From an uncultured Succinivibrio sp. (GTDB lineage Bacteria > Pseudomonadota > Gammaproteobacteria > Enterobacterales > Succinivibrionaceae), in contig LR994470.1 in assembly GCA_905186145.1 (NCBI GenBank), forward strand, positions 1,117,376 through 1,171,544: 54,169 nucleotides of DNA, read 5' to 3'. Under the pieces are notes generated by a model. It worked only from the letters and a program-made list of their open reading frames with translations. It did not search any database and had not been told where the DNA came from. Shown one piece after another: positions 27,535 through 44,604 of the stretch. A program made the translations under genes and the position numbers. How positions within the stretch are numbered: the stretch's first letter is position 1; every line of letters begins with the position of its first letter.

Positions 27535-30090
27535 GTGAAGAGAATGCTTATTAACGCCACGCAAATCGAAGAGGTTCGCGTAGCTCTTGTTGATGGTCAA
27601 AAGCTGTATGATCTAGACATTGAATCTCCACAGCATGCCAATAAGAAAGCCAATATCTACAAAGGAACGATTACTCGCATTGAGCCTAGTCTTGAAGCCG
27701 CTTTCGTTGATTACGGTGTAGAACGCCATGGTTTTCTGCCTTTAAAAGAAATTGCCCGTGAATATTATCCAGCAGGCATTAACTTTAACGATCACGCACA
27801 AGTACGTTCTGCTCTCAAAGAGGGCCAGGAAGTTATTGTTCAGATTGAAAAAGAAGAGCGCGGCCTTAAGGGTGCAGCTCTTACAACTTATATCTCTCTG
27901 GCAGGTAGCTACCTCGTGCTTATGCCAAATAACCCTCGTGCAGGCGGTATCTCCCGTCGTATCGAAGGTGAGGACAGAACCGATCTTAAAGCTGCTTTAA
28001 AGGGACTTACTATTCCTGATGGTATGGGCGTTATTGTCAGAACCGCAGGTGTTGGTAAAACCTCAGAAGAACTTGAGTGGGATCTTTCTATCTTAACTAA
28101 AGTTTGGGACATGATTAAAAAAGCAGCCTCAGGCCGCAAAGCCCCATTCTTAATTCACCAAGAATCTAATATCGCTTTACGCGCTATTCGTGATTATCTG
28201 CGTCCTGACATCGGCGAAATTTTAGTCGACAGTCCTGATAGCTTTGAGCAGATTAAGCACTATGTAGAGCTTGTACGTCCTGAGTTTACCTCCAAAGTGC
28301 ATCTTTACACTGGCAATATTCCGCTCTTTAGCAAATTCCAGATCGAAAGCCAGATTGATACTGCCTATCAGCGTGAGGTTCGCCTCCCTTCAGGCGGTGC
28401 TATCGTAATTGATCCTACCGAAGCTTTAACCTCTATTGATGTTAACTCTGCCAAGGCTACTCGTGGCGGTGACATTGAGGAGACTGCTTTACAGACCAAT
28501 ATCGAAGCTGCAGAAGAAATTGCTCGTCAATTACGTCTGCGCGATGTTGGTGGCTTAGTCGTTATCGATTTTATCGATATGACTCCACTTAAAAACCAGC
28601 GTGAAATTGAAAACAGAATGCGTGATGCTGTACGTCAAGATCGCGCTCGCATCCAGTTTAGTCGCATTTCCCGCTTTGGTTTATTGGAGATGTCCCGTCA
28701 GCGCTTAAGACCTTCTCTTGAAGAGTCAAGCTCTTACGTCTGCCCTATGTGTAACGGCCAGGGTACTTGCCGTGACACCTCTTCTTTAGCTCTTTCCATC
28801 TTAAGACTTATTGAAGAAGAAGCTCATAAGGAAAATATGGGTAATGTTAGCGCTACAGCCTCAGTTGAGGTTGCAACTTTCATGTTAAATGAAAAGCGCT
28901 CTCAGTTAGCTGATATTGAAAAACGTAACAATATCACTATTACCATCATTCCAAACAAATTCTACATGCCACATGAGTATGTAGTTGAGCGTCAGACTGT
29001 AGCTAACGAAACTCATCATAGCTCCTTAGACTCTCTGCGTGAGTTAAATAAGGCCGCTCGTGAAGAGGCTGAAAATGCTCGTGCCAATATCAAAACAGGA
29101 AAAGTAGCTGATGCAACCAAAGACAGCTCCCCTGCTTTAAATACTGACATCTTATCAACCGCTATCACAGCCCCAGCTCCAAAGCCTTCCTCAAAAAGAA
29201 AGCAAAAAGCTGAAGATGAGCATAAAAAAGTAGAACAGCCATCATCCATCATTACCTCAATTAAGAGTTTAATCTCTTCTATTTTTGGCGGTGGTGAGCA
29301 AAAGGATGAACCTGTAAAACCAGCTGAGACTAAAAAGCCACAGCGCTCTAATAACAATCGTCGTAATAACCGTAATAATCAGAAGAATAACTCTGAAAAA
29401 TCTGAGCGTAATGAGAATACCTCAAGACGTCGTCAGAGAAATAATGAGGAAAACTCTGAGAATAACGTAAAAGAGACTAAGAGCCGTCGCAACCGCTCTG
29501 AAAATAAGGTTGAAAAAGCTGAGAATGCAAATGCTAAGCCTCGTCGTAATAGCCGCAAAAATGCTGCTACTGAGGAAAGCTCTGAAAATACTCAGCCCCA
29601 GCCAATACAGCCTAAGAGCCGTCGCAACAACAAGTCTGAAAATGCTGAGGCTCCACAAAAACGTCAGCGCAAGCGCATTTCAAAGCCTGCTGTAGTAACT
29701 CAGGTTAAGGACGAGGAAAATACTGTTGTTTATACTCCTTATGAGTATAAAGAGCGTACCTATACCTTCGCTGAGAGTGCTCAAGGCGAGGACTTAAATG
29801 TTGATTTTACCCAAGAGGTAAAACAACGCAATTTAGATCAAGGCTATGAGTATGAACATGCTCAAAAGACCGGCTGTCTTACTGATGCTGAAATTGCTTC
29901 TTTAGAAGGTATCACCGAGCCTGTAATGTACCCTGTAGATTACACTCAAGTTCCATCCGAGCGCGACAATAACAATCTTGAAGACTTTGACAAGTCAGAA
30001 AGAGCTGGTGGTTTAAATGGTGCTTCTGAAAATGTAGCCACTACCTTCATCAATACCGTAGAAGATGGTGAAACCTACTTAAAAGACTAA
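27535..30090 (+). CDS. rne: Ribonuclease E (851 aa)
   Basis: [10 protein letters not shown] start (GTG), S1 domain, IDVNS and DFIDM catalytic Asp residues, CPMC Zn-link, amphipathic [16 protein letters not shown] membrane helix, Arg/Asn-rich CTD. Confidence 0.98.
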
Positions 30091-30151: not shown

Positions 30152-30910
30152 TTAAACCAAAATTAGCTCAACGCCTAGTTTTATAATTTCATTAGCAACA
30201 TCTTTTGATAAACCATTATCTGTAATAATGGTATCTATTTCAGACAATTGTGCAACCTCATAAAGTTGGCTCTTTCCGTACTTACTACTATCTGCAACTA
30301 CAATTTTATGTGAGCTTACTTTCGCTAAATCCCGCTTTAAATTAGCTTTTTCTATTGTTGGAGCAGTAATGCCACAACGTAAATCCCACGCATTACAACT
30401 AATAAAAGTATAAGAAGGATGAATTGCATTAATTACTTCTCTAGCCTTATCTCCAATACAGGATTGAGAGGAGTTATCTATAGTACCCCCTGTTAAGCTC
30501 ACCTCTGACTTTGAATTACTATCTGCAAGCAAAATACCAATATGAAGATCTGTTGTAATAACCTTTAAAGGTACATCTATAAGACACCTTGCAATTTCAA
30601 TTGTTGTGGTTCCTGCATCAAATAAAACACTATCACCAGGTTTAATTAATTCAGCAGCTTTTTTTGCTATACGTAATTTTTGTTCATGATGCATTCTTTG
30701 CTTTTCTGATGTTGTTGGCTGTCTACTTGGAGAATCTTTTAAAGAAACACCTCCATGAACACGATAAACAGCCCCCGCTTTGTCTAATTTTATTAGATCT
30801 CGCCTAATAGTGGCAGGAGATGCCCCTGTTACATCTACAAGATCATCAACTGTTGCCAAACTTTTAGTTTTAAGAAACTCCAATATTTTTTCTTGACGGG
30901 ATACAAACAT
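30152..30910 (-). CDS. DeoR/GlpR (YgbI-like) transcriptional regulator
   Basis: SPATIRRDL, RVHGG and FDAGTTT motifs. Start set at ATG 30910 with GAGGA SD. Confidence 0.93.
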   Translation of the reverse strand: MFVSRQEKILEFLKTKSLATVDDLVDVTGASPATIRRDLIKLDKAGAVYRVHGGVSLKDSPSRQPTTSEKQRMHHEQKLRIAKKAAELIKPGDSVLFDAGTTTIEIARCLIDVPLKVITTDLHIGILLADSNSKSEVSLTGGTIDNSSQSCIGDKAREVINAIHPSYTFISCNAWDLRCGITAPTIEKANLKRDLAKVSSHKIVVADSSKYGKSQLYEVAQLSEIDTIITDNGLSKDVANEIIKLGVELILV

Positions 30911-30984
30911 ATCTAATCCTCGCATCATTATTTTTATTGCCTAATACATATATTATCAAATTTTTACTGCTTTAAGGATTATTT

Positions 30985-31000
30985 TGATTATAAACAATCA
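30985..31000. promoter_or_regulatory. Candidate DeoR operator 1
   Basis: TGATT-ATAAAC-AATCA (TGATT-N6-AATCA). Confidence 0.6.
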
Positions 31001-31035
31001 TTTTTATATTTTTTTTGATTAAATATTTTGAAATG

Positions 31036-31051
31036 CGTGATTATCTTCACG
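31036..31051. promoter_or_regulatory. CRP-like site
   Basis: CGTGA-TTATCT-TCACG with an A-rich left flank. Confidence 0.55.
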
Positions 31052-31063
31052 GTTTATATAATA

Positions 31064-31079
31064 TGATTGACTATAATCA
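31064..31079. promoter_or_regulatory. Candidate DeoR operator 2
   Basis: TGATT-GACTAT-AATCA. Confidence 0.6.
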
Positions 31080-31111
31080 CAAATGATGATTATTTATATA
31101 AGGTAATACAA

Positions 31112-33415
31112 ATGGATCTCAAACTTGCAATCATTGCAGATGATCTTACTGGAGCAAATGATAGCTCAGTACAATTTTCCACAAAAGGATTAAACACAGC
31201 AGTTGCCATTCCTGGAGCCGATATTTCGTGTATAAAAAATATCGAAGTATTGGTTTTAGATTGTGAAAGTAGAGATATTCCAAAAGATAACGCTTATTCA
31301 GCAGTTTTTTCAGCTACAAAAAAATTACTCAAATTAAACAACAAAATTAACATTTATAAAAAAGTAGACTCTACTTTAAGAGGTAATATTGGTGCTGAAT
31401 TAGAGGCCTTATATAAATCTTATGAACCATCTTTTATTGTTTTCGCCCCTGCTTTTATCGAAGGTGGCAGAACCACTATACATGGTTATCAATACCTGCA
31501 TGGAAAAAAACTTGAAGAGACAGAACTTGCAAATATTCCAAAGAGCCCTGTTACAAGTTCTTTTATTCCAGAAATTATTGCTAAACAAACAAATTTAAAA
31601 ACAGCTATATTAGATTTAAGTGTTATAAATCAAGGTGTTCATGCAATAGAAAACAGTTTACAAAAAATAATTAGTAGTGATATAAAAATCGTTATTTCAG
31701 ATGCAAAAAAAATAGAAGATCTTGATTTATTAGTAAATTGTTTACAAAAGTATGAAAAAGTAATTTATGCAGGATCCGCAGGTCTTGCAAAATCTTTATC
31801 AAAATTTATCCAATCTTCAAAAATTGAAGATGTGATTCCAAAAGCAAAAAAGATCTTGGTACTAGCAGGCTCAATAAGTGCAGTAACAAGATCTCAGTGC
31901 AAAAATCTTCTTAATTTAAGAAATGTAAAATTATTTGCCGCCGATCCTGTAGAAACAATAAAAAAAACAAATCTTTATGCTCAAAAAGTTTCACGTCAAA
32001 TAATAAATATGCAAAAAGACACCGATGTTATTTTAGTTTGTGGTGCCTTTAACGAAAATGACGTCCACAAAAGTTCCGAAGCAGGTTCTGAAATTGGGTT
32101 AAATTTCTTTGAATGTGGTGAGCGTATAGCTTGCTTTATGGCATCTTTAATGAATAGGTGCGCTGATTATTTCGATGCTTTTATCTTAACAGGCGGAGAT
32201 ACAGCTATACATGCGTGCAACTCTTGTGACGCAAATATACTAAAAATTTTAAAAGAAATTGAGCCTGGAATCCCACTTTTAAAAATAGCTTACGGCAAAC
32301 AAAAAGAAAAATACGTTATCACAAAAGCAGGTGCTTTTGGCAATCCACTTAGCTTAGTCAACTCAGTAAAAGTTCTATCTAACTCTTTAAAGAGGACCAC
32401 TATTATGAAAAAACCTACCATAGGTCTTACCATGGGAGATCCTGCTGGTATCGGCTCGGAGATTATTATTAAATCACTACAGGATCCCCAAATATATGAA
32501 AAAGCACGCCCTGTTGTATTCGGAGATGCTAAGCAGTTAAAACGTCTAATAAAAATTTTAAAATTGAATATCGACGTTCACAAAATAAACAACATAAAAG
32601 ACGCAAGCCCTTCTATAAATAGAATTGAAGTTGTAGATCTTGATAATGTTCCTGAAGATATTCCTTTTGGTCAAATAAATCCAATTTGTGGTAATGCAGC
32701 ATTTGAATATATTGAAGCAGCAATAAAGGCTCATCTTGCTCATCAAATACAAGCAATAGTTACAGCCCCTCTAAATAAAGAAGCTTTACATGCAGGAGGT
32801 CATAACTTTCCTGGACACACAGAGATTTTAGCTACTTTAACAGGAACTAAAGATTACTCAATGATGCTAGTAAGTCCAAAACTCAGAGTTATACATGTTT
32901 CGACTCATGTTTCTTTACGTGGTGCTTGCGATGCTTGTAAAAAAGAACGTGTCTATAGAGTAATAAAACTAGCTGACGACACCTTGAAACTTATGGGTTT
33001 TGAAAATCCTCGTATTGCAGTATCAGGATTAAATCCTCACTGTGGAGAACACGGATTATTTGGCAATGAAGATATAGAAGAAATTGTACCTGCTGTAGAA
33101 AAAGCTCAAGGTGAGGGCATAAATGTACAAGGTCCAATAGCTCCTGATACAGTATTTCATAGAGCCGCTAATAAAAACGAATTTGATATTGTCGTTGTTC
33201 AATACCATGACCAAGGACATATTCCACTTAAAGTATTAGGTTTTAGCTCAGGTGTAAATATTACAGTAGGCCTTCCTATTATTAGAACATCTGTTGACCA
33301 CGGAACCGCTTTTGAAATTGCAGGAAAAGGTATAGCAGATTCTGAATCAATGACTGCCGCCATGGAGATAGGAGCACAAATGGCTTCTGTCAAATTTGCT
33401 AACGAATTAATTTAA
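31112..33415 (+). CDS. Fusion: DUF1537 four-carbon acid sugar kinase (DtnK-like) + PdxA2 4-phospho-tetronate dehydrogenase
   Basis: N-half IIADDLTGAND, YKKVDSTLRG, TGGDT and TKAGAFG; C-half TMGDPAGIG, GHTE, HVSTH, GLNPH, YHDQGH and RTSVDHGTAF. Start set at ATG 31112 (AAGGT SD). Internal AGAGGA SD and in-frame ATG at 32405. Confidence 0.9.
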   Translation: MDLKLAIIADDLTGANDSSVQFSTKGLNTAVAIPGADISCIKNIEVLVLDCESRDIPKDNAYSAVFSATKKLLKLNNKINIYKKVDSTLRGNIGAELEALYKSYEPSFIVFAPAFIEGGRTTIHGYQYLHGKKLEETELANIPKSPVTSSFIPEIIAKQTNLKTAILDLSVINQGVHAIENSLQKIISSDIKIVISDAKKIEDLDLLVNCLQKYEKVIYAGSAGLAKSLSKFIQSSKIEDVIPKAKKILVLAGSISAVTRSQCKNLLNLRNVKLFAADPVETIKKTNLYAQKVSRQIINMQKDTDVILVCGAFNENDVHKSSEAGSEIGLNFFECGERIACFMASLMNRCADYFDAFILTGGDTAIHACNSCDANILKILKEIEPGIPLLKIAYGKQKEKYVITKAGAFGNPLSLVNSVKVLSNSLKRTTIMKKPTIGLTMGDPAGIGSEIIIKSLQDPQIYEKARPVVFGDAKQLKRLIKILKLNIDVHKINNIKDASPSINRIEVVDLDNVPEDIPFGQINPICGNAAFEYIEAAIKAHLAHQIQAIVTAPLNKEALHAGGHNFPGHTEILATLTGTKDYSMMLVSPKLRVIHVSTHVSLRGACDACKKERVYRVIKLADDTLKLMGFENPRIAVSGLNPHCGEHGLFGNEDIEEIVPAVEKAQGEGINVQGPIAPDTVFHRAANKNEFDIVVVQYHDQGHIPLKVLGFSSGVNITVGLPIIRTSVDHGTAFEIAGKGIADSESMTAAMEIGAQMASVKFANELI

Positions 33416-33455
33416 TTATTTTTAAATTAAATATTTCAAAAATATGGAGTTTTTG

Positions 33456-34337
33456 ATGTTTAAACCATATGGAATAATTACACCTGTTTTAACAGCTTTA
33501 GACGACAAAGAAAATTTTAATAAAGAAGCATATCAAAAATTTATCGATAAACTCATTAAAGCTGGTGTTCACGGAATTTTTGCCTTAGGGACTAATGGTG
33601 AATTCTACGCATTTAATGCTGAAGAAAAAATAGAAATAATTAAAGCAGCTCGCGAGGCTGTAGATGGCCGTGTACCTTTCTATGCTGGAACTGGATGCAT
33701 TACTACTAAAGAAACCATTGAACTTACAAAAGAAGTTGAGGCTTTAGGTGGTGTTGATTGCCTATCAATTATATCCCCATACTTTGTTGGCATTTCGCAA
33801 GACGATCTTTATCGTCATTTTAAGGATGTATCAAAATCAACTTCATTACCTGTTCTTCTTTACAATATTCCAGCAAGAACCGGAAACAATATTGATTATA
33901 AAACAGTAAAAAAATTAGCCGCAGAATGTCCTAATATCATTGGTATCAAAGATAGTTCAGGTAATTTTGACAATACACTCAAATATATTGAAAACACAGA
34001 TCCTCGTTTAAACGTATTAGCCGGATCTGATTCTTTGATTTTATGGACATTACAAGCAGGTGGAACTGGATCTATTTCCGGATGCTCAAATGTTTTCCCT
34101 GAACTTATGGTTTCTATATATAACCTATGGAAAGAAGGCAAATTTGTTGAAGCAAATGAGGCTCAAAAAAAGATTCGTCCATTTAGAAATGTTATGCAAA
34201 TGGGAAATCCAAACTCTGTTGTAAAACGAGCTTCTGATTTATTAGGAAATGGAACTGGTCCTGCTAGATCTCCATCCAATATAAACAATAAAGCTATTGA
34301 TGAGGCTTTACTTGAAGTCTTTAAACTCTACAAGTAA
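33456..34337 (+). CDS. DapA/NanA (DHDPS/NAL) family lyase/aldolase
   Basis: GTNGE, LYNIP (Tyr) and IGIKDSSG (Schiff-base Lys). Start set at ATG 33456 (GGAG SD). Confidence 0.9.
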   Translation: MFKPYGIITPVLTALDDKENFNKEAYQKFIDKLIKAGVHGIFALGTNGEFYAFNAEEKIEIIKAAREAVDGRVPFYAGTGCITTKETIELTKEVEALGGVDCLSIISPYFVGISQDDLYRHFKDVSKSTSLPVLLYNIPARTGNNIDYKTVKKLAAECPNIIGIKDSSGNFDNTLKYIENTDPRLNVLAGSDSLILWTLQAGGTGSISGCSNVFPELMVSIYNLWKEGKFVEANEAQKKIRPFRNVMQMGNPNSVVKRASDLLGNGTGPARSPSNINNKAIDEALLEVFKLYK

Positions 34338-34353
34338 TGGAATGAGGTAGAAA

Positions 34354-35520
34354 ATGTCCATATATTCCCAAACTTCCATTAGACGCATTATTGGCGGAGA
34401 AGGATCTATTTCGCAATCTTACGATATTGCTAAATCTTTTAATGCAAAAAATGTTGTTTTAATAACAGATAAAGTTGTCTACGAATTAGGATTAACTAAA
34501 ACCGCCGAAGAATATTTGGCAAAGGCCGGTTGTAATATACACATAATAAACGATGTTCCACCAGAACCTTCAGTAGCGCAAGTAAACCACATTTATGAAC
34601 AAGCAAAAGCTGTTGATTGTGATTTGTTAGTAGCTATTGGTGGTGGCTCATCCATGGATACTACAAAATTAGTTTCTTTATTATTAACAAACTCTATTTC
34701 TTTGGTTGAAATGGTTAAAGGAGCCAAACCTTCAAACAAAGGAATTCCAACATTATTTGTACCAACAACAGCAGGAACAGGATCAGAAGCTACGCCAAAT
34801 GCCATAGTTTTAGTTCCTGACGAAAATTTAAAAGTTGGAATTGTATGCGATTTTGAGGTTGCTGATGCTGTTATATTAGATCCAAATTTAACAAAAGATC
34901 TTCCTAAACCTATCACAGCAAATACCGGTGTTGATGCACTTTGCCACTTAATGGAATGTTTTATTTCAAAAAAATCAAATCCATTATCTGATGCTTTTGC
35001 TATTGCTGGAATAAAACTAGTTGGGGAAAGTTTAAGAGAATGTTATAAAAACGGCTCCAACCTAGTTGCACGTGAAAAAATGCTATTAGCATCGTGTTAT
35101 GGTGGTATATGCATAGCATCATCATCCACAACAGCAATACATGCTCTATCATACCCTTTAGGGGGACGCTATCACATTCCACATGGTTTATCTAATGCTA
35201 TTTTAATGCCTTTAATAATGGACTTTAACAAAGACTATTGTAAAGAAAAATATTGCATTATGGCTCAAGCTTTTGGATTAGAAACAACCGGTAAAACAAA
35301 AGATGAAATAGCTCAACAATTTGTTGAAGAACTATACTCTCTAAATCGAGATTTAAATATTAAATGCGATTTAAAAGCTGTTGGTGTTACAGAAGATGTA
35401 ATATCATCTTTAGTTGACGGAGCCTCTAAAGTAACAAGATTATTAAATAATAACCCTAAGCCTTTAAGCAAAAGTGATATGTACAAAATTTATGAAAATT
35501 TGTTAAAAGCTAATGCTTAA
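34354..35520 (+). CDS. Iron-containing alcohol dehydrogenase family protein
   Basis: GGGSSMD, PTTAGTGSE, DALCH and HALSYPLG...HIPHG motifs. Confidence 0.93.
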   Translation: MSIYSQTSIRRIIGGEGSISQSYDIAKSFNAKNVVLITDKVVYELGLTKTAEEYLAKAGCNIHIINDVPPEPSVAQVNHIYEQAKAVDCDLLVAIGGGSSMDTTKLVSLLLTNSISLVEMVKGAKPSNKGIPTLFVPTTAGTGSEATPNAIVLVPDENLKVGIVCDFEVADAVILDPNLTKDLPKPITANTGVDALCHLMECFISKKSNPLSDAFAIAGIKLVGESLRECYKNGSNLVAREKMLLASCYGGICIASSSTTAIHALSYPLGGRYHIPHGLSNAILMPLIMDFNKDYCKEKYCIMAQAFGLETTGKTKDEIAQQFVEELYSLNRDLNIKCDLKAVGVTEDVISSLVDGASKVTRLLNNNPKPLSKSDMYKIYENLLKANA

Positions 35521-35526
35521 AAAAAC

Positions 35527-35559
35527 AAACGCCTTGTGATTAATATACAAGGCGTTTTT
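35527..35559 (+). terminator. Intrinsic terminator after Fe-ADH
   Basis: AAACGCCTTGT...ACAAGGCGTTT followed by T run. Confidence 0.8.
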
Positions 35560-35647
35560 CTTACAAATTCATATTAAATCACCTCATTTTAAATAAACTA
35601 CAATAATATCAATATATTAGTGCACGTATTTTTTTATAAATCAATAT

Positions 35648-35663
35648 TGATTTATAATAATCA
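35648..35663. promoter_or_regulatory. Candidate DeoR operator 3 (upstream of the TRAP operon)
   Basis: TGATT-TATAAT-AATCA, same geometry as 30985 and 31064. Confidence 0.5.
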
Positions 35664-35919
35664 TATTTATTATTAAGCAATCATTTTTTCTTAAAAAAAA
35701 CATCAAAAAATATAAAAAAACACATTTTTTTATTAAAAATAGTACTCATTTATACCCATAACTAATAAGAAATCATTACTTATAAATTTGTATTATCTTT
35801 TTAAGATTGTTATTAAACAAATAACAATTTTGTCGTTATAAATTATCAAGTTAATTTCAAACAACAATCACAAAATAACTTTAATTTATAGAAAAAAATA
35901 AATATGAAAAATATTTTTG

Positions 35920-35935
35920 CGTGATATAAATCATA
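35920..35935. promoter_or_regulatory. CRP-like site upstream of the TAXI SBP
   Basis: CGTGA-TATAAA-TCATA; shares TGCGTGAT with the 31036 site. Confidence 0.4.
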
Positions 35936-36048
35936 ATTTAATCATAAAAAATAATTTTTGATTAAAAATACTACTATACTTCTTAACATAAAAGATCAAA
36001 GACATCTTTACTAATAAAATCAAACATTCAAATAGAGGGTATTAAGTT

Positions 36049-37080
36049 ATGGCTTTAACATTAAAAAAAATCTCTGTTGCATGCGCTATTGCTACTTTTT
36101 CTTTATATTCAGGATTTGCCCAAGCCGCACCAGCTCCACTCACAGAGCCTGTAAAATTGACTTTTGCAGCTCAAGAAGTTGGAACAGCTGCTTATAACTA
36201 TGCAAGCGCTCTGCAGGCAGTAATGATTAAAGGATTACCTGAAGGCTCCTCTATCAATATTACAACTTCATCTCCTGGAGCTGTAGGCGCTCCTATTATC
36301 GTAAATGGTGGAAAAAAAGCTGACATCATTATGTCAAACTCTGCCCCTGCTCGTTGGTCTTACGAAACAGGCATTTTAGGCAAAGCTCCTACCAAAAATA
36401 TTGCCTCTTTAGGTGGTGGTTTTGGCCATGATTTTGTAAACGTAATGTTTACTCAAAAATTTGTTGAAAAAACTGGTATCAAAACCATTGAAGATTTAGT
36501 TGCACAAAAATACCCTGTAAAGATTGTTATTAAAAAGAATGGTTCTTTAGGAGAACTTTCTGCAGAAAAGGTCTTTGAAGCTTTAGGTGTCACTTTTGAT
36601 GATATTGAAAAATGGGGCGGTGTAGTTGAAAAAACTGGTGGCGATGCCATTAAATCAGGTCTTCAAGATGATATCTATGATATGACTATTGATCACATTG
36701 GTGCAGGTCAATCAAACACAACAGAATTATGTTTGACACATGATATGTATGACGTTCAATTGGCTGACTCTACTTTACAAAAATTAGTCGATATGGGTTA
36801 CGACTATGTCGAAGTTGCTCCTAATACTTGGAAAGGTCAAGAAACTGCTATTAAATCAGTTGGCTCTCAACAAGAGGTATTAGTTTCTACTTCTATGGAT
36901 GAATCCGTAGCTTATGCTTTAACAAAAGCAATCATCGAAAATAAAGATGAATTATCACAAGCAGTTTCAGCTATGAAATATTTTGCCCCTCAAACTGCCG
37001 GAACTAAAGCTATCACTGGCGTAGATTTACATCCAGGTGCAGCAGCTTACTACAACGAAAAAGGATTACCTTCTAAATAG
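36049..37080 (+). CDS. TAXI family TRAP transporter solute-binding protein
   Basis: Signal peptide AQA; GTAAY-type N-terminal motif and DLHPGAAAYYNEKG C-terminus; adjacent fused permease. Confidence 0.88.
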   Translation: MALTLKKISVACAIATFSLYSGFAQAAPAPLTEPVKLTFAAQEVGTAAYNYASALQAVMIKGLPEGSSINITTSSPGAVGAPIIVNGGKKADIIMSNSAPARWSYETGILGKAPTKNIASLGGGFGHDFVNVMFTQKFVEKTGIKTIEDLVAQKYPVKIVIKKNGSLGELSAEKVFEALGVTFDDIEKWGGVVEKTGGDAIKSGLQDDIYDMTIDHIGAGQSNTTELCLTHDMYDVQLADSTLQKLVDMGYDYVEVAPNTWKGQETAIKSVGSQQEVLVSTSMDESVAYALTKAIIENKDELSQAVSAMKYFAPQTAGTKAITGVDLHPGAAAYYNEKGLPSK

Positions 37081-37089
37081 TAAGTAAAT

Positions 37090-37117
37090 AAAGAAGGTGT
37101 AATTTAACACCTTCTTT
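37090..37117 (+). terminator. Hairpin between SBP and permease (partial terminator or mRNA stabiliser)
   Basis: AAAGAAGGTGT-N6-ACACCTTCTTT; a second hairpin lies at 37148-37184. Confidence 0.65.
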
Positions 37118-37238
37118 CAATTGAAATTTATAGATAAAAATTCTTTTAACGGTATTTAGTAATTAGCCAAATATAAATACCGTTTTTTATCTTCATAAAC
37201 TTTTATTTGTTCATCAAACACTGAAAAAAAGGTTCATC

Positions 37239-39215
37239 ATGTCAGAACAAAAAAGATCTTGGCGCTTTTACGCACTTATTGCAGTAACCATCGCCTTCTT
37301 TGGCTTTCAGATGTATTTAGCACTTGTAAAGCAACTAACACCTATGCTGCAAAGTCCTTTGCACCTTGTATTGGCATTAGCTGTAATATTCTTAGTCTAT
37401 CCTACAGATCGTAAATATCGTGATAATCTCAAGCGCAAAACTGAATTAAACGGCACATCTTTAACTGACGATCTTTTAAATAAATTTAAATGGACCCGTT
37501 TTTTTGACATTTTTTCTTTTGCCGGAATTGCATTGCTTTTCTACTACTGCATCACAGAGTATGAAAGATTGGCAAATTTTACCCCATTTATTGATGAAGT
37601 ATTTCCTTTAGATATAACAGTAATGATTGTTACTATTGTTCTCTTACTTGAAGCTGTAAGAAGAACTTTAGGAAATATTCTTTACTTCTTTATCATTGCA
37701 TTCATTGTATTTGCATGGATTTCTCCTTGGTTGCCAGGAATTTTCTTCACAAAAGGCCTACCTTTTAATGAAATGCTTGACCAATTTACTATTGGTATGA
37801 CCATGGCAGAGCAAGGTGTATTTGGAACTCCTTTATATACTTCAGCCTCTGCTCTTTTCTACTTCATTGTTTTTGGCGTTTTCTTTTCCGAATGCGGTGG
37901 AGGACAACTCCTCATTGACATTGGTATGAAATTTTCAAATAAGTCATCAGGAGGACCTGCTAAAGCTGCCGTTATCTCATCCGGTCTTATGGGCATGGTT
38001 TCAGGCTCTGCCGTAGCTAACGTTTCTACAACCGGAGTTATGACAATTCCAATGATGAAAAAAATTGGTTATCTACCTCAAGAAGCAGGCGCAATTGAAG
38101 CTGTAGCTTCTACTGGTGGACAAATCATGCCTCCTATTATGGGTGTAGGAGCTTTCATCATGGCAGAAATGCTTGGTATACCTTATTTCGATGTTGCTGC
38201 AGCAGCATTACTTCCTGCTTGTGCTTTCTACTTTGGCGTATTCGTTTTAGTTTCTTGTTTAGCCCGCAAGCGTGCTGCCAGATCTAATACTGGAGAAGAC
38301 GTTAAAATTGAAGTAAAACAACCTATATTACCTAGACTTTATCTATTATTACCAGTAATTCTTTTGGTAACTTGGATCATTAGTGGATCTTCATTAATGC
38401 GTTCAGGAATGGTTGGTATTTTTGCCATATTATTATTAAATATTGTCAGCTACTTTGTTGGCAAAAAACAAAACTTTGTAAATATCAAAAGATTAGGAGA
38501 TTGTTGCGTTAGAGGCGTAAAACAAGCTGCTTCTATTGCTATTCCTACTGCAGCTTGCGGTATTATCATCAATGTTGTAACAGGACAAACTTCTTTAGCA
38601 ACAAATCTGTCAGGTTTAATTGGGTCTCTTGGTGTAGACTACCTTTTTGTTGCATTATTAATTGCTATGATTGGTTGTATGGTATTAGGTATGGCCTTAC
38701 CAACTGTAGCAGCTTACTTAGTTGGAGTAATATTATTCGTTCCTGTTATTAGAAGCTTAGGAGTTGATGCTCTTTGTGCCAATATGTTTGTATTTTACTA
38801 TGGCATTATGGCTCAAATTACCCCTCCTGTTTGTGTCGCATCCTATACTGCAGCTGGTATTGCAGGAGCTGATGCAATGAAAACCGGCATCAACGGCATG
38901 TTATTTGCATTAGTTGGATTTATGGTACCTTTCGTATTCATTTACAATCCAGCAATATTACTTGAAGGATCAATAATCGAGATTGTTTTAGGCGGCATCC
39001 AATTGATGATCGGCACTTATTTCTTGGCTATTACTGTATCTGGTTTCTGGAAAACACATATACCTGTTTGGCAAAGACTCATTACATTTGGTGTAAGTAT
39101 TGGCTTCATTATTCCAGAAGCAACATCATCAATTATCGCTCTGATTGTAGGCTTTGGAGTATTGTCATTAAACTTCATAGCATTTAAAAAGTTGCCATCA
39201 AAAGTAGGTGTGTAG
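37239..39215 (+). CDS. TRAP transporter 4TM/12TM fused permease (TAXI-associated)
   Basis: GGPAKAAVISSGLMGMVSGSAVAN, ASTGGQIMPP, GMALPT and ITPPV motifs. Confidence 0.92.
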   Translation: MSEQKRSWRFYALIAVTIAFFGFQMYLALVKQLTPMLQSPLHLVLALAVIFLVYPTDRKYRDNLKRKTELNGTSLTDDLLNKFKWTRFFDIFSFAGIALLFYYCITEYERLANFTPFIDEVFPLDITVMIVTIVLLLEAVRRTLGNILYFFIIAFIVFAWISPWLPGIFFTKGLPFNEMLDQFTIGMTMAEQGVFGTPLYTSASALFYFIVFGVFFSECGGGQLLIDIGMKFSNKSSGGPAKAAVISSGLMGMVSGSAVANVSTTGVMTIPMMKKIGYLPQEAGAIEAVASTGGQIMPPIMGVGAFIMAEMLGIPYFDVAAAALLPACAFYFGVFVLVSCLARKRAARSNTGEDVKIEVKQPILPRLYLLLPVILLVTWIISGSSLMRSGMVGIFAILLLNIVSYFVGKKQNFVNIKRLGDCCVRGVKQAASIAIPTAACGIIINVVTGQTSLATNLSGLIGSLGVDYLFVALLIAMIGCMVLGMALPTVAAYLVGVILFVPVIRSLGVDALCANMFVFYYGIMAQITPPVCVASYTAAGIAGADAMKTGINGMLFALVGFMVPFVFIYNPAILLEGSIIEIVLGGIQLMIGTYFLAITVSGFWKTHIPVWQRLITFGVSIGFIIPEATSSIIALIVGFGVLSLNFIAFKKLPSKVGV

Positions 39216-39216
39216 C

Positions 39217-39660
39217 ATGATTATTGATAAATTAAACAATATCTTATTCTATAAAAGCCTGCTTCCTAATATAGAAAATGGCTTAGAAAAACTCAAAATA
39301 ATTAACTTGGATTCTGTAGGTAAATATGAATTTGATGGAGGTTTTTTAATAATCCAAGAAGGTAATACAAAACCACTTACAGAAGGAACATACGAAGCTC
39401 ATAAAAAATTTATAGACATTCAAATTATGTTAGATGGTAGTGAAGAATTAGCTTGGGACGATCTACAAGATCTTATCGAGTGCATTCCTTATAACGAAGA
39501 AAAAGACGCTACTAGATATAAAGGAAAGCTAGAACATACTATAAAAATTACAAAAGGAATGTTTTACATAGCTTTTCCTCATGATGGACACAAGCCTGTT
39601 TCTCATCAAGAAACTCAGCAGCATTTCAAAAAAATTATTATGAAATTACCTGTAGCCTAA
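39217..39660 (+). CDS. YhcH/YjgK/YiaL (DUF386) family protein
   Basis: EAHKKFIDIQ and FPHDGHKP motifs. Start set at ATG 39217 (AGGTG SD). Confidence 0.9.
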   Translation: MIIDKLNNILFYKSLLPNIENGLEKLKIINLDSVGKYEFDGGFLIIQEGNTKPLTEGTYEAHKKFIDIQIMLDGSEELAWDDLQDLIECIPYNEEKDATRYKGKLEHTIKITKGMFYIAFPHDGHKPVSHQETQQHFKKIIMKLPVA

Positions 39661-39685
39661 GTTCAAACAAATTATGGAGAACAAA

Positions 39686-40846
39686 ATGGAATTACCACAC
39701 TTACAGAGCTTATCGACAGATGGTAAACTTTATATAAACGATGATATGTGCACTATTGAGGCTATGATTCCTCCAGGAAACTACAAATCAGCACACGCTC
39801 CTGCACTTTTAGAAATGCCTTCAGGAGATATTCTTTGTGCTTGGTTTGCAGGATCATTTGAGGGAAGTGCTGATGTAAGTATTGTGTGTGCCCGTTTAAA
39901 AAAAGATACCACCTCTTGGGAAGCTCCTGTAAAAGTATCCGTTGATCCTCACAGATCTGAACAAAATCCTTCTCTGTTTTTAGGACCTGATGGTTTGATT
40001 TGGGCTATGTATACAGCACAATTAGATAGAGTTCCTGGAAAAGATAATATGCAATTCACTTCCCAAGTAAGGCTACAAAAATCATCTGATGGTGGCCAAA
40101 GTTGGAGCGAATTTGAAACAATATTCCCTAAAGAGGGAACTTTCTGTCGCCAGCCAATTCAAGTATTAAAAAATGGTCGTTTTATATTTGGAAACTGGCT
40201 TTGCACTGATTCCCAAAATGGATTAGAAGGGGATCCTTCTGTATTCAAAATCTCTGATGATCAAGGAAAGACTTGGCGTGAAGTTGAAATGCCTGAAAGT
40301 TCAGGTGTTGTACACCCAAATGTTGTTGAACTTGAAGAAAATCATTTAATTGCTTTTATGCGTAGCCGAGCTGCAGACTTTATTTATAAGTCAGAAAGTT
40401 TTGATAATGGAGATCATTGGTCAATACCTGAACCAACTGTTTTACCAAATAACAACTCTAGTATAAGTGCATTAAAGTTAAAATCAGGCAGAATTGCTAT
40501 AGCTTACAATCCTACTCATGCACCTAATGCGCAAAAAGGAAATGTAGCCTGGCCGGGATTGCGATGCCCTGTTGCAGTTGCTTTATCAGAAGATGGTGGT
40601 AATACTTTCCCTATGATTCGTTTAATGGAGCGCGGAGAAGGTTTCTGCGGCAAAGAAAATACAACAAATAACAAACAATACGAATACCCATATCTCATGC
40701 AAAGCAAAGATGGTCGTTTACATTTAGCTTTTGCTTATAAAAACCGCATTGGCATAAAGTATATGAGCTTTACAGAAGAAGATATAACAGGAATAAAACG
40801 TGAAACTGTTGGCTTATATAACCCAACAGCAGCTCAAAGTCGTTAA
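39686..40846 (+). CDS. BNR/Asp-box beta-propeller, sialidase-like fold, cytoplasmic, non-canonical active site
   Basis: Four Asp boxes (SSDGGQSW, SDDQGKTW, SFDNGDHW, SEDGGNTF) and YEYP. No signal peptide, no RIP motif. Start set at ATG 39686 (GGAG SD). Confidence 0.85.
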   Translation: MELPHLQSLSTDGKLYINDDMCTIEAMIPPGNYKSAHAPALLEMPSGDILCAWFAGSFEGSADVSIVCARLKKDTTSWEAPVKVSVDPHRSEQNPSLFLGPDGLIWAMYTAQLDRVPGKDNMQFTSQVRLQKSSDGGQSWSEFETIFPKEGTFCRQPIQVLKNGRFIFGNWLCTDSQNGLEGDPSVFKISDDQGKTWREVEMPESSGVVHPNVVELEENHLIAFMRSRAADFIYKSESFDNGDHWSIPEPTVLPNNNSSISALKLKSGRIAIAYNPTHAPNAQKGNVAWPGLRCPVAVALSEDGGNTFPMIRLMERGEGFCGKENTTNNKQYEYPYLMQSKDGRLHLAFAYKNRIGIKYMSFTEEDITGIKRETVGLYNPTAAQSR

Positions 40847-40861
40847 CAATTTGTTATACAT

Positions 40862-40883
40862 AAGGGCAAGCTTAAAGCTTGCC
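40862..40883. repeat. Right copy of the 22-bp direct repeat; also a bidirectional terminator (BNR / ydfG-like)
   Basis: AAGGGCAAGCTTAAAGCTTGCC, identical to 30109-30130, followed by T8. Confidence 0.9.
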
Positions 40884-40909
40884 TTTTTTTTACCTTATAA
40901 AATATAAGA

Positions 40910-41686
40910 TTATTTTTTCTCTAGATCTAAATTACGAGTAACGCTCAGACCACCAAAGGTTTGGCACACAGGCATCATCTCCATAGTATTAATGTTTAAA
41001 TGAGCTGGGGTGTTAAGTAACCACAGCACTGTATTGGCAATATCCTCAGGTAAGATTGATTCTGTTTTGTCGTAAATTGATAAAACTTTTTCCTTATCAT
41101 TATTTAAACGTACATAAGAGAACTCAGTATCTTGGCAAAGTCCTGGTTTTATAACAGTTACCTTTACAGCACTACCTGCAGTATCACATCTTAAATTGCG
41201 GCTAAATTGCTCCACAAAAGCTTTGGTTGCGCCATAGACATTGCCACCTGAATAAGGCCAATTACCGGCAGTTGAGCCTAAGTTAATAATATAACCACAA
41301 TTGCGCTTTATCATATTTGGCAAAATAGCATTAGTCATAGCTAAAAGACCTGTAATATTAGTCTCAACCATAGTCTTCCAATTTGCCATAGAGCAGTTTT
41401 GAGCCCTATCAACCCCCAATGCAAGACCTGCATTATTAACTAATACATCAATAGTCTTAAATTCTTCAGGAAGAGAGTCTAAAAGAGCTGGAATTTTTTC
41501 AACATCACGCACATCCAAAGCTAAAGGATAAATTTTTCCTGGAAATGCGTTTGCCAAAGATTGCAGTTTCTCTAAACGTCGTGCAAGAGCCACGACTTTA
41601 AAACCATTTGTAGCTAAAGTTTCGCAAATAGCTTTACCAAAACCTGCAGAAGCTCCGGTTACTAAAACTGTTTTGTAATTTGACAT
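40910..41686 (-). CDS. ydfG: YdfG-like NADP-dependent 3-hydroxy acid dehydrogenase (SDR)
   Basis: TGASAGFG, NNAGLALG, GGNVYGATK, PEDIA and PAHLNIN motifs. Confidence 0.82.
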   Translation of the reverse strand: MSNYKTVLVTGASAGFGKAICETLATNGFKVVALARRLEKLQSLANAFPGKIYPLALDVRDVEKIPALLDSLPEEFKTIDVLVNNAGLALGVDRAQNCSMANWKTMVETNITGLLAMTNAILPNMIKRNCGYIINLGSTAGNWPYSGGNVYGATKAFVEQFSRNLRCDTAGSAVKVTVIKPGLCQDTEFSYVRLNNDKEKVLSIYDKTESILPEDIANTVLWLLNTPAHLNINTMEMMPVCQTFGGLSVTRNLDLEKK

Positions 41687-41974
41687 ATAAAAGCTCTCTT
41701 AAGTTAAGTTGATTAAAGATGATTTTAATATTCAAAATATAAAAATTTATAAAACATATTTTTAAAGTATAACTAAAAAAATATATTTTATAAAAAATAT
41801 ATTTTTCAAATAGTTACATTTTAAATTAAATATTTAGTTTTAAAATTTACATAAATAAACAAATATTTTGTTAAGTAGGGTTAATTTTATCTTTATTATA
41901 TTTTTTATCTTGTGAAATAACCTTGCTATTTTGAGTACAATATAACTATCCTAAACTAAAATGTAAGTATCATT

Positions 41975-43852
41975 ATGGATCAATCTTTACTTCCGAATAT
42001 TTACGATTTTATATCGCACACTTATCCTTTCTCCCAACTTGACACTCTTGCCAAAGACGCCGTAGCTACCGCCGTAAAAATTTCCTACCACAGCCCAGAT
42101 GACGTGCTTGATAATGAACAATTAACCGGTGCTGGCCTTTACATGGTGCGTGTTGGTGCTGCAGAGGAAATAAATAAATCAGATAACTCCCTGCGCGCTC
42201 GTTTAGGCGTAGGTGATAGCTTTGGTTATTCCCAAATCAATAAACAAGGCGAAAGTGATTACAAAATCACTTTCCTTGAGAATACCCTTTTATATTTCAT
42301 CAGCAAGCAAATGTTGCAGTTTTTGATTAACAAAAACAAAACTGTTGGTGAATATTTCAACTCCAAAGAATGGGTTAGACTTTCATCTACTCATAAAAAT
42401 AATGAAGAGAGTAATACTATTCCTTCATTTACAGAAAGAACTGTATCGTCTGTATGCTCAACTGATGTGGTAATCATCAATGAAGAGACCACTATTCAAA
42501 ATACAGCCTTGCAAATCTCGCAAATGCATACTGACGTAGCATTAATTAGCAACGATAACAGCACCTTACAAGGTATTGTTACTAAAAGTGATATTACCGC
42601 AAGAGCCGTTGCTACAGGACTTGATATTAAACGCCCGATTCGGGACATTATGTCACGTACAGTTTTAACTGTAGATGGTAAACGCCCAATCTATGATGCT
42701 CTTGAGCTTATGGTTATGCACAACATTAAGTGCTTACCTGTATTAGATGGCAATAAGATCATAGGTACCGTTACTACCCGTCAGCTTTTAACTCACAGCC
42801 AGTTACAAGCTGTTTATTTAAATAAAGATATTCAAAACGCTCCAGATCTTGAAAAACTTATAAAAATCTCAAAACACAAAAAAGAGGTGTTTGAGACTTT
42901 AGTTGAAACTGGTGTTGAGCCACGCATTGTACAAAAGGTAATGTCACACTTTTGTGATCTCTACTGCCAGAGGATTTTACAGTTAGCTGAGGAAAATTTT
43001 GGTAAAGCTCCTTGCGCTTATGCCTTTGCCGCAGCAGGCTCTTTAGCTCGTAATGAGGTTCAGTTCTTATCTGATCAAGATAACTGCATTATCACCGAGC
43101 GCGATCTTACAGAAACAGAACGCAAGTACTTTGCTGATTTAAGCGATTTTGTTTGCAAGAGTTTAGATAAATGTGGCTATCCTTTATGCGATGGTCATTT
43201 CATGGCTTGCAATCCAAAGTGGTGCCAGGGATATAGTACTTGGACTCATTATTATGACTCTTGGATATCAAATACCAATGAAGATGCTATCTTAAATAGC
43301 TCTGTATTCTTAGATATGCGTTGTCTTTATGGAGATGAATTCTTAGTTACTAAATTAAGACAGCATTTAATAAAAGCTGTAGCTTCAAATAGTCGCTTCT
43401 TAGCTACTTTAATGAAGATTTCAGCTAATGTAACCCCTCCTATTGGCACCTTTAGACAATTTGTGCTTACCAAAGATGGTAAGAACAATCCAAGTCTTAA
43501 TATTAAAAAACAAGCAATTAATCTTATTGTAGAGATTGCTCGTTTATATGGTTTGTCTGCAGGTACTTTAAAGTGTGATACTTACTTACGCCTTGAAGAT
43601 GCGGTTAAACATGATTTAATTAAAGAAGATGAGTTCCGTGAACTTTATGAAGCTTATACCTTCTTAAATAAAGTTCGTTTTAAACATCAATTACAATCTT
43701 TAAAATCAGGCTCTCCAATGTCAAATCATTTAGAGCCTTCTGTATTAAGTCAGTTTGAACGCAACCACTTACGCGATGCTTTCCGTATTATTGCAAGACA
43801 TCAACAAGCAGCTTTATTTAGATTTACAGGCGGTATAGGAATTTTAGGTTAA
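41975..43852 (+). CDS. cNMP-binding/CBS-pair/DUF294 putative nucleotidyltransferase (GlnD/GlnE-like NTase fold)
   Basis: N-terminal cNMP-like domain, two CBS repeats (GIVTKSDI, GTVTTRQL), GSLAR.E...SDQDN NTase motif, LDMRCLYGD and DUF294_C helical domain. Confidence 0.88.
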   Translation: MDQSLLPNIYDFISHTYPFSQLDTLAKDAVATAVKISYHSPDDVLDNEQLTGAGLYMVRVGAAEEINKSDNSLRARLGVGDSFGYSQINKQGESDYKITFLENTLLYFISKQMLQFLINKNKTVGEYFNSKEWVRLSSTHKNNEESNTIPSFTERTVSSVCSTDVVIINEETTIQNTALQISQMHTDVALISNDNSTLQGIVTKSDITARAVATGLDIKRPIRDIMSRTVLTVDGKRPIYDALELMVMHNIKCLPVLDGNKIIGTVTTRQLLTHSQLQAVYLNKDIQNAPDLEKLIKISKHKKEVFETLVETGVEPRIVQKVMSHFCDLYCQRILQLAEENFGKAPCAYAFAAAGSLARNEVQFLSDQDNCIITERDLTETERKYFADLSDFVCKSLDKCGYPLCDGHFMACNPKWCQGYSTWTHYYDSWISNTNEDAILNSSVFLDMRCLYGDEFLVTKLRQHLIKAVASNSRFLATLMKISANVTPPIGTFRQFVLTKDGKNNPSLNIKKQAINLIVEIARLYGLSAGTLKCDTYLRLEDAVKHDLIKEDEFRELYEAYTFLNKVRFKHQLQSLKSGSPMSNHLEPSVLSQFERNHLRDAFRIIARHQQAALFRFTGGIGILG

Positions 43853-44559
43853 TGAGTATTTTCGACAATCCCCTTGTCAAACTGCAAAAACAGTGTAAAA
43901 AAGCAGCACAAGATGAAAATCTTAGTAAAGAGCTTAGATCTTTTTATGAAAGAGAAATGCCTAAGCCTGATGCTTTAATCAAAGATCTAAAACTTACGTC
44001 TATTGATTTTGAGACCACCGGTCTCAACTTTCAGGAGGACGTAGTTTTATCTATGGGAGGCATTAGCTTAGATAGCGGTAGAATCGACTTTTCAACATCT
44101 TTTCACAAGATCTTAAGTGTCGATCCTAAAAAGATTAAGTCAAATGCTGCTGTTATAAATCAAATTACTCCTGAACAATTAATTGATGGTGCAACCCCTC
44201 ATAAAGCTTTTATGGAACTTATGGATAAGCTCTCAGGAGGATTGGTTTTAACTCATTGCAAGGTGATTGAAAGTACTTTTTTAAGAAATGCCTTAAAAAT
44301 ACCCGATAAATATCCTTTGCCGATGGTGTTTTTAGATACTATGGCAATTGAGAAATATTTGCTCTCTCACAGAGGCTCATATAAACCTGATGATGTGCGC
44401 TTAAATAAAATTCGTGAACGTCGAGGTCTTCCTGCCTATGAAGCGCATAATGCCTTAGCTGACAGTTTAGCTACAGCCGAAGTTTTTTTAGCGCAATTAC
44501 ACGATATTTTTGGCAAAAATCCACATATTCTCAAAAAAGTTTATAAACTCTGTTGCTAA
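43852..44559 (+). CDS. DEDDh 3'-5' exonuclease (DnaQ-like), translationally coupled to the NTase
   Basis: IDFETTG, HCKVIE and AHNALAD motifs; TAATG stop/start overlap at 43850-43854. Confidence 0.9.
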   Translation: MSIFDNPLVKLQKQCKKAAQDENLSKELRSFYEREMPKPDALIKDLKLTSIDFETTGLNFQEDVVLSMGGISLDSGRIDFSTSFHKILSVDPKKIKSNAAVINQITPEQLIDGATPHKAFMELMDKLSGGLVLTHCKVIESTFLRNALKIPDKYPLPMVFLDTMAIEKYLLSHRGSYKPDDVRLNKIRERRGLPAYEAHNALADSLATAEVFLAQLHDIFGKNPHILKKVYKLCC

Positions 44560-44564
44560 GACAA

Positions 44565-44592
44565 AAAAAATGCTCCTTTAAAGGAGCATTTT
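44565..44592. terminator. Bidirectional terminator between the exonuclease and the autotransporter
   Basis: Perfect palindrome AAAAAATGCTCCTTTAAAGGAGCATTTTTT core. Confidence 0.85.
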
Positions 44593-44604
44593 TTGTATTA
44601 GAGT

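Follow-up and report, generated by a model that had tools for sequence, protein, structure and literature searches.

An orphan copy of a sensor nucleotidyltransferase and DEDDh exonuclease gene pair in an uncultured Succinivibrio: a putative writer/eraser signalling module

Introduction

Several pseudomonads encode a four-domain nucleotidyltransferase (NTase) together with a DnaQ-like partner: PA3233/PA3232 in Pseudomonas aeruginosa, Pflu5625 and its neighbour in P. fluorescens SBW25, and PP_0354 in P. putida KT2440, all in the CrbS/R (MxtR/ErdR) acetate regulon. Here we describe the same kind of pair in a 54,169-nucleotide stretch (the window) from an uncultured Succinivibrio sp. of the Succinivibrionaceae (GenBank assembly GCA_905186145.1, contig LR994470.1, positions 1,117,376 to 1,171,544 of the forward strand), where the gene for a 625 amino acid (aa) NTase is followed by that for a 235-aa DEDDh 3'-5' exonuclease. 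The locus is an orphaned new copy of a known, unsolved module. The two genes are paired far beyond chance, as an obligate unit working together, and the evidence supports a tie between the module and uptake that depends on sodium:solute symporters (SSS).

The family and the gene pairing were already known, and published CrbS/R induction and cofitness with a lactate/D-alanine symporter show their physiological relevance to carbon-source uptake. PA3232-PA3235 are clustered with actP and co-regulated on acetate and propionate (10.1101/2022.08.25.505149). Pflu5625 is a verified member of the CrbS/R acetate regulon, induced with actP and acs, and was predicted, citing Aravind & Koonin 1999, to control the activity of proteins through nucleotidylation (PMC5715377); the protein-nucleotidylation half of the model discussed below is thus an old prediction. 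A pair member (COG2905, the same family, and SSS-adjacent) is cofit with a DUF4212/SSS lactate/D-alanine transporter in Shewanella amazonensis and P. stutzeri, and the authors guess that expression of the symporter requires it (10.1101/072470). PP_0354 was said in 2021 to be 'not functionally characterized in any strain' (PMC8402216). This agrees with the original prediction for the locus, made from the sequence alone, which held the biochemistry of the pair to be unassigned. We found no later paper, and the literature on PA3233 and VC0300 consists of lists and expression data, without mechanism.

Results

The two genes are kept as a unit

We identified two same-strand open reading frames (ORFs) joined by a stop/start overlap and followed by a hairpin terminator:

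41975..43852, + strand: sensor nucleotidyltransferase gene, COG2905/DUF294 family, 625 aa (ORF list, Pfam, AlphaFold2 (AF2) model, Foldseek)
43852..44559, + strand: partner DEDDh 3'-5' exonuclease gene, 235 aa (PF00929, alignment, AF2, Foldseek)
43850..43854, + strand: TAATG stop/start overlap (translational coupling), with TAA at 43850-43852 and ATG at 43852-43854
44565..44594, strand not assigned: bidirectional intrinsic terminator with a 13-bp stem, an A-run and a T-run on either side (sequence inspection)

The terminator hairpin closes the unit and is common to a convergent autotransporter gene. The overlap and the terminator suggest that the NTase and exonuclease genes are co-transcribed, and they bear out the TAATG coupling and the closed two-gene arrangement that had been proposed for the locus.

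Among 80 loci fetched from species-representative genomes, the exonuclease gene lies directly after the NTase gene in 74, mostly with 1- or 4-nt overlaps. The other six comprise one locus at a contig edge, one with a 705-aa PAS-fused DEDDh enzyme, and four that lack an exonuclease within 7 kb. The 705-aa PAS-containing enzyme replaces the 235-aa form after the NTase in a Competibacterales metagenome-assembled genome (MAG; L061:3653-5770), where an SSS symporter adjoins.

The same linkage is seen within the family and across the phylum. In a sample of 61 genomes drawn evenly from the Succinivibrionaceae, the NTase and the exonuclease occur in the identical 21 genomes and are adjacent in all of them. 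A genome of the same genus (G054; locus L088, G054:C111:18500-22400) has an NTase reduced to residues 1-310, the sensor half, and an exonuclease split over two frames, which indicates joint decay of the pair in what is a draft assembly, where a frameshift could be an error. In 301 genomes across Pseudomonadota, with partners scored within 6 kb, we identified 131 DUF294 genes in 94 genomes. A DEDDh gene of the partner type stands near at least 99 of these genes, in 94 cases on the same strand and downstream, so that the pair is as widespread as had been claimed. The position downstream of a DUF294 gene and the co-inheritance place the 235-aa exonuclease among these partners.

Two architectures recur across the phylum sample: that of the window, with an NTase of ~620-650 aa and a stand-alone exonuclease of ~210-300 aa (59 cases), and a second in which an NTase of ~480-500 aa is joined by an exonuclease of ~700-770 aa with additional domains at its N-terminus (40 cases). 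Partner exonucleases thus occur fused to PAS or other N-terminal domains, and the overall picture supports a module that acts as a signalling output behind exchangeable sensor domains. We also observed 853-aa Cache-PAS-DUF294-DUF294_C proteins (L089:1607-4168 and L090:2900-5461), which have an extracytoplasmic sensor and no exonuclease gene within 6 kb.

The sensor nucleotidyltransferase

The 625-aa protein has the following parts:

41996..42349, + strand: cyclic-nucleotide-binding (CNB)-like beta-barrel domain, aa ~8-125, with a degenerate phosphate-binding cassette (Pfam below cut-off, family profile)
42437..42799, + strand: CBS pair (Bateman module), aa ~155-275 (two Pfam CBS matches, E 3e-17; matches to solved CBS pairs)
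42881..43282, + strand: DUF294 Pol-beta-type NTase core, aa 303-436 (PF03445, E 1e-37)
43037-43081, + strand: G355-S356...D367-Q-D369 motif, inside the DUF294 core
43394..43825, + strand: DUF294_C helical 'substrate-binding' domain, aa 474-617, of the KNTase_C/HEPN-like clan and GlnD/GlnE-type (PF10335, E 1.4e-36)

DUF294 (129.5 bits against a Pfam gathering cut-off of 21), DUF294_C (125.9 against 22.5) and the two CBS stretches upstream of the NTase (63.1 against 24) are all confidently identified, and a GlnD_UR_UTase match (24.4 bits against 21) falls within DUF294_C. The clan relationship of DUF294_C is taken from PMC3710099. The first domain is less certain: the Pfam cNMP_binding match (aa 41-121) reaches 19.5 bits, under the 27.5-bit cut-off, and therefore does not place the domain among canonical CNB domains. 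It matches the CNB domains of PKG and PKA at the level of the family profile, which points to a CNB fold. Thus, of the domain order first proposed, the CBS pair, the NTase and DUF294_C stand as described, while the cNMP-binding part is reduced to a degenerate relative.

Canonical binding of cAMP or cGMP by this domain is doubtful, because the clade of the window's NTase has lost both the Glu and the Arg of the phosphate-binding cassette (FGE...R[ST]A). CBS site 1 retains G-x-x-T-x-x-D in an alignment of 74 homologues (27-82% identity), with G200 invariant and T203 and D206 nearly invariant. From what is generally known of CBS domains, conservation of this stretch is taken as a sign of adenosyl-ligand binding, and sensing of an adenosyl ligand by the CBS pair is plausible. 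The proposed gating by energy state or cyclic nucleotide is therefore tenable for its adenosyl side and doubtful for its cNMP side.

The catalytic motif GSLARNEVQFLSDQDN is present, as had been read from the sequence. Across the same 74 homologues S356, R359, D367, Q368 and D369 are invariant, and G355, E361 and D447 nearly so; the protein thus has an intact Pol-beta motif G-S...D-x-D with a third carboxylate, D447. The AF2 model has a mean predicted local distance difference test (pLDDT) score of 88.8. Its best Foldseek matches over the full module (catalytic plus helical domain) are the N- and C-terminal GlnE domains (1v4a, E 1.3e-8; 3k7d) and the DrrA-Rab8a complex 6yx5_B (template-modelling (TM) score 0.70 on the target); the other matches among the 50 listed are CBS pairs, including the OpuCA CBS-c-di-AMP complex 5ks7. 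GlnE and DrrA are protein AMP-transferases that act on protein tyrosine-AMP. The model supports a structural grouping of the NTase with the protein AMP/UMP-transferases, in line with the GlnE/GlnD kinship suggested earlier. At the level of sequence, NCBIfam GlnD equivalogs reach 16-18 bits against cut-offs of 890-1255, which places the protein outside GlnD, and no solved structure of a DUF294 catalytic domain was detectable. The nearest named relatives are from Succinatimonas and Succinivibrio MAGs, and identity to gammaproteobacterial orthologues beyond the family is only 27-45%.

The partner exonuclease

The 235-aa protein matches PF00929 RNase_T (55.2 bits against a cut-off of 24, E 1.6e-14). 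The best NCBIfam model, PRK09146 '3'-5' exonuclease', aligns over nearly its full length at 150.5 bits, under its cut-off of 266. The layout comprises a conserved N-terminal two-helix extension (aa 1-45) and a DnaQ-like core (aa 47-220). In an alignment of 28 partner exonucleases D52, E54, H135, D162, H199 and D204 are invariant, and Y196, near the catalytic H199, is nearly so. E140, the Glu of HCKVIE, occupies the ExoII position; at least 90% of the 28 share it, and it is a family trait. The DxE, ExoII Glu and H-x4-D elements listed in the original prediction correspond to D52, E54, E140, H199 and D204. Both enzymes are probably active, because their catalytic residues are conserved.

The AF2 model (pLDDT 93.1) is matched about equally by the DinG exonuclease, RNase T, Pol III epsilon and the PolC exonuclease (TM 0.55-0.64 on the query), and the predicted fold is that of a generic DnaQ/RNase T enzyme. 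The protein falls far below the DnaQ models (TIGR01406, 18.2 against 222.7 bits; PRK05711, 29.2 against 196 bits). A canonical dnaQ is encoded elsewhere in the genome (C1:1525603-1526142, 243 bits, above the TIGR01406 cut-off). Given the low TIGR01406 score and the separate dnaQ, the 235-aa exonuclease is not the replicative proofreader.

Association with sodium:solute symporters

Flanking-gene clustering of the 80 loci identified an SSS-family symporter within 7 kb in 35, usually directly upstream, which agrees with the earlier remark that the pair often stands beside solute transporters. The flanking symporters belong to at least three subfamilies: VC_2705/DUF4212-type carboxylate transporters, near which Acs or a sigma-54 response regulator is sometimes encoded; YidK-type transporters, which sit inside inositol-catabolism clusters; and SGLT-like transporters. 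Because several subfamilies flank the pair, the link is to the SSS class and not to one substrate. A conserved protein of ~146 aa with no Pfam match accompanies the VC_2705-type symporter in 12 loci (cluster 5, including L043, L048, L050, L051, L052, L054, L057, L060, L072 and L075), and its gene is sometimes located between those of the symporter and the NTase. Given this intervening gene and an ambiguous gene label, the cofitness data of Price et al. were not used to assign which partner is 'positive'.

The Succinivibrio genome, a single 2.04-Mb contig, contains five SSS genes (SSF matches, frames of 494-593 aa), none of which adjoins the pair; the absence of an adjacent transporter, noted earlier, thus holds for SSS symporters. 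Phylogenetic profiling had been proposed as a way to find the target, and presence/absence across the 61 family genomes singles out one candidate, a 549-aa SSS at C1:404797-406446, 755 kb from the pair. It shares ~70% identity with the SSS whose gene stands directly upstream of the pair in Vibrio litoralis and V. fujianensis (L036, L037). Each of the 21 pair-positive genomes carries it, as against 5 of the 40 that lack the pair. Some of this is a clade effect, as a paralogous control SSS (C1:363850-365355) occurs in 17 of 21 and 13 of 40, respectively. In a subclade of 34 genomes sharing the control, the table for pair and 549-aa SSS (symporter present/absent, pair-positive vs pair-negative) is 21/0 vs 4/9 (p = 1.4e-5), and with the window's genus left out it is 12/0 vs 4/9 (p = 4.6e-4); these p-values are uncorrected for phylogeny and reflect few independent events (six pair-positive genera and two within-genus co-absences), mostly in MAGs. 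The control shows no positive association with the pair in the same subclade (p = 0.14). The two co-absences are G019 and G037, pair-negative genomes within the genus that keep the control SSS but have neither the pair nor the 549-aa SSS. The profile thus yields a lead rather than a result.

The 549-aa SSS gene stands alone. Its neighbours at C1:401569-404503 are a transposase-like ORF (with an X in its translation from an ambiguous base) and a 383-aa ORF, and nothing among them hints at a substrate. A 592-aa YidK-type SSS 22 kb downstream of the pair (C1:1183018-1184796) was considered as a partner and rejected, as only 6 of the 61 family genomes have it, none of them another member of the genus.

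Genomic setting

In five Succinivibrionaceae loci the gene order is rne, NTase, exonuclease, suhB (on the minus strand) and then a 176-aa gene. The window has the same flanks, with rne at 27535-30090, suhB at 48728-49555 (minus strand) and a 173-aa gene at 49701-50222, and rne-[pair]-suhB is the ancestral position in the family. Two insertions separate these flanks from the pair here, an 11.9-kb island on the rne side and an autotransporter gene on the suhB side.

The island (30152-41686, ~11.9 kb), inserted relative to related genomes, encodes a DeoR regulator, a 782-aa protein in which a sugar-acid kinase (SBD_N/NBD_C) is fused to PdxA, a DHDPS-like lyase, an Fe-ADH, a TAXI-type TRAP transporter (NMT1_3 and a 658-aa DctM), YhcH/DUF386, a BNR sialidase-like protein and an SDR. 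The whole resembles a catabolic island for sugar acids or sialic acid-type compounds.

The autotransporter gene (44605-48417, minus strand) has a 1206-aa ORF that stops at an in-frame TGA (44797-44799). Past this codon the frame stays open for another 63 codons, which complete the beta-barrel and close with ...RVGYRYEF, a C-terminus typical of the outer membrane, before a TAA at 44605-44607. The TGA is probably a nonsense mutation, a sequencing error or a site of read-through; TGA terminates only 52 of 928 long open frames in the genome.

An intergenic stretch of 288 bp, strongly A+T-rich, lies upstream of the NTase gene. A promoter scan of this spacer returned as many sites as expected from shuffled sequence, and the only candidate is:

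41912..41941, + strand: weak sigma-70-like promoter candidate GTGAAA-18-TACAAT (9/12 matches)

We did not identify DUF4212 or an Acs orthologue in the genome (the only Acs match is partial, at 31% identity, to another acyl-CoA ligase), nor an SLC5-fused CrbS-type kinase, as all five SSF frames are at most 593 aa. Thus, the acetate-switch setting of Pseudomonas and Vibrio does not apply here, and the pair in this genome lies outside a CrbS/R (MxtR/ErdR) regulon.

Discussion

A possible cycle of nucleotide addition and removal

We tentatively favour a model in which the pair adds and removes a nucleoside monophosphate (NMP) under the control of a sensed input. The CBS pair and the CNB-like domain would sense an adenosyl-type ligand and gate the NTase; the NTase, of GlnE/DrrA type, would transfer an NMP to a hydroxyl acceptor, with a protein side chain as the likeliest one; and a dedicated DnaQ-fold phosphodiesterase would hydrolyse the same R-O-P(5'-NMP) linkage and release 5'-NMP. 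Such a cycle could tune SSS-dependent uptake according to the ligand. In the window the module would be detached from its symporter and act in trans, with the 549-aa SSS at C1:404797-406446 as the best candidate partner. Taken as a whole, we put this input-gated cycle at somewhat short of an even chance.

We infer NMP transfer, a protein acceptor, reversal by the exonuclease, and the symporter (or a factor that it needs) as the target. A protein acceptor is favoured because of the fold match to GlnE and DrrA. DEDDh enzymes hydrolyse the R-O-P(5'-NMP) diester with release of 5'-NMP, which is the bond found in a nucleotidylated hydroxyl; applied here, the same chemistry could undo the modification. 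Pairing alone suggests the eraser role, and the writer/eraser reading is plausible. Its most specific form, in which a DnaQ-fold exonuclease has taken on the role of a protein de-nucleotidylase or of a trimmer of protein-linked nucleotides and, with a CBS-gated transferase, switches an SSS or an essential accessory factor, seems to us unlikely. If true, it would be an undescribed post-translational control of uptake, in ~1/4 to 1/3 of Pseudomonadota.

Several points weigh against the cycle. We know of no protein de-nucleotidylase with a DEDDh fold, and the substrates of all characterised DEDDh enzymes are, to our knowledge, nucleic acids or short oligonucleotides. Known reversal takes other routes: GlnE works by phosphorolysis, GlnD by an HD domain and SidD by a PP2C-like fold. 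Foldseek likewise returns only DEDDh enzymes that act on nucleic acids or oligonucleotides for the exonuclease model. The degenerate cassette of the CNB-like domain does not identify a ligand, and the few independent events behind the symporter profile limit its weight. About a quarter of the DUF294 genes in the phylum sample have no nearby exonuclease. We did not identify an NTase-exonuclease fusion among the ~853-aa DUF294 frames of that sample, which are the Cache-PAS-DUF294 receptors; a search with a concatenated query, in which the exonuclease portion was scored, gave no match of 473-1505 aa, and as it needs shared 5-mers, distant fusions could escape it. From the literature, deletion of pflu5625 gave no acetate phenotype (PMC5715377), the label of the cofit gene, 'COG2905 (RNAse T domain protein)', could refer to either partner (10.1101/072470), and we found no biochemical datum for any family member (PMC8402216).

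As DEDDh enzymes are not known to act on protein adducts, RNA tailing and trimming and a small-nucleotide signal stay serious rivals. In the first, the NTase would tail the 3'-OH of an mRNA, sRNA or tRNA needed for symporter expression with untemplated nucleotides and the exonuclease would trim it, giving post-transcriptional control of uptake. The characterised relatives of the exonuclease fold (RNase T, epsilon, DinG-exo, PolC-exo) all degrade nucleic acids in the 3'-5' direction, and in the Succinivibrionaceae the pair is located directly 3' of rne (RNase E) on the same strand, although this adjacency is a single ancestral arrangement in one family. The NTase and its helical domain match GlnE and DrrA, however, with no poly(A) polymerase, CCA-adding enzyme or MenT-type RNA nucleotidyltransferase among the 50 matches listed. 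The exonuclease family is not consistently basic (median isoelectric point 6.7, range 5.2-9.5, in itself uninformative), and no conserved RNA element was detected around the pair, where the only Rfam matches were sub-threshold and all on the terminator hairpin. We judge control through RNA tails to have a small but real chance.

A second-messenger cycle, in which the NTase, upon sensing, produces a small (oligo)nucleotide of linear or cyclic form, the exonuclease degrades it, and the signal acts on the symporter or on regulators, would suit the order of sensor domains before an NTase output and a catalytic module that accepts varied sensor inputs. The exonuclease family includes oligoribonucleases, and the nanoRNase Orn acts on pGpG. 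Transporter CBS domains can bind cyclic dinucleotides, and the c-di-AMP complex 5ks7 is among the fold matches. The GlnE/DrrA-like fold with its large helical acceptor-binding domain speaks against such a cycle; no cGAS/DncV-like or OAS-like enzyme is among the 50 matches listed, no receptor domain is evident in the neighbourhoods, and PADLOC identified no CBASS-like components. We therefore consider a diffusible signal distinctly improbable.

The exonuclease may itself be the regulated output, if the NTase modifies or allosterically controls a nuclease that degrades a specific nucleic acid. Strict co-inheritance and coupling fit such an arrangement, as do the near-invariant Y196 beside H199 and the sensor or scaffold domains that many partner exonucleases carry (~700-770 aa frames; PAS in L061), which suggest a controlled effector. 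The stand-alone 235-aa form, however, has only its 45-aa extension, we found no evidence of an interaction or a modification site, and the symporter linkage is explained no better; a chance of this kind appears slim. An ordinary role of the exonuclease as a subunit for DNA proofreading or repair, or of the pair as an anti-phage or toxin-antitoxin system without relation to transport, is disfavoured and very improbable: the generic DnaQ-family matches and a generic PADLOC 'DEDDh, CRISPR-associated' model (E 1e-22) are set against the separate canonical dnaQ and the partner's low score, the lack of any PADLOC match for the NTase or any system-specific one for the exonuclease (generic DEDDh models only), neighbourhoods of metabolic and transport genes rather than defence islands, and induction of an orthologue on acetate under CrbS/R.

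Whichever chemistry applies, its solution would either give protein nucleotidylation an eraser of a new class or uncover a new way of controlling transporters through RNA or nucleotides. The orphan copy shows the two genes staying together as a unit even where no transporter adjoins them, and its phylogenetic profile singles out one symporter as a testable partner in trans.

Comparison with known systems

Unlike the Pseudomonas pairs, that of the window has no symporter beside it, and its genome lacks Acs and an SLC5-fused CrbS-type kinase; the host is a gut anaerobe with a small genome, and the pair lies between rne and suhB. GlnE, GlnD and Legionella DrrA/SidM run reversible covalent nucleotidylation switches. 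The window's NTase resembles them in having a Pol-beta NTase core that carries a G[GS]...DxD motif and precedes a helical acceptor-binding domain, and differs from them in its sensors, which are CNB-like and CBS domains and not ACT or PII-binding, and in lacking membership at the sequence level. The opposing enzyme differs as well: a DEDDh fold is proposed here, as against a second NTase domain in GlnE, an HD domain in GlnD and the PP2C-like SidD. The exonuclease shares its fold and five catalytic positions with Pol III epsilon, RNase T, the N-terminal exonuclease of DinG and the exonuclease domain of PolC. Unlike these, it has Glu for Asp at ExoII with the invariant H135 five residues upstream, a conserved 45-aa N-terminal helical extension, and an obligate pairing with an NTase.

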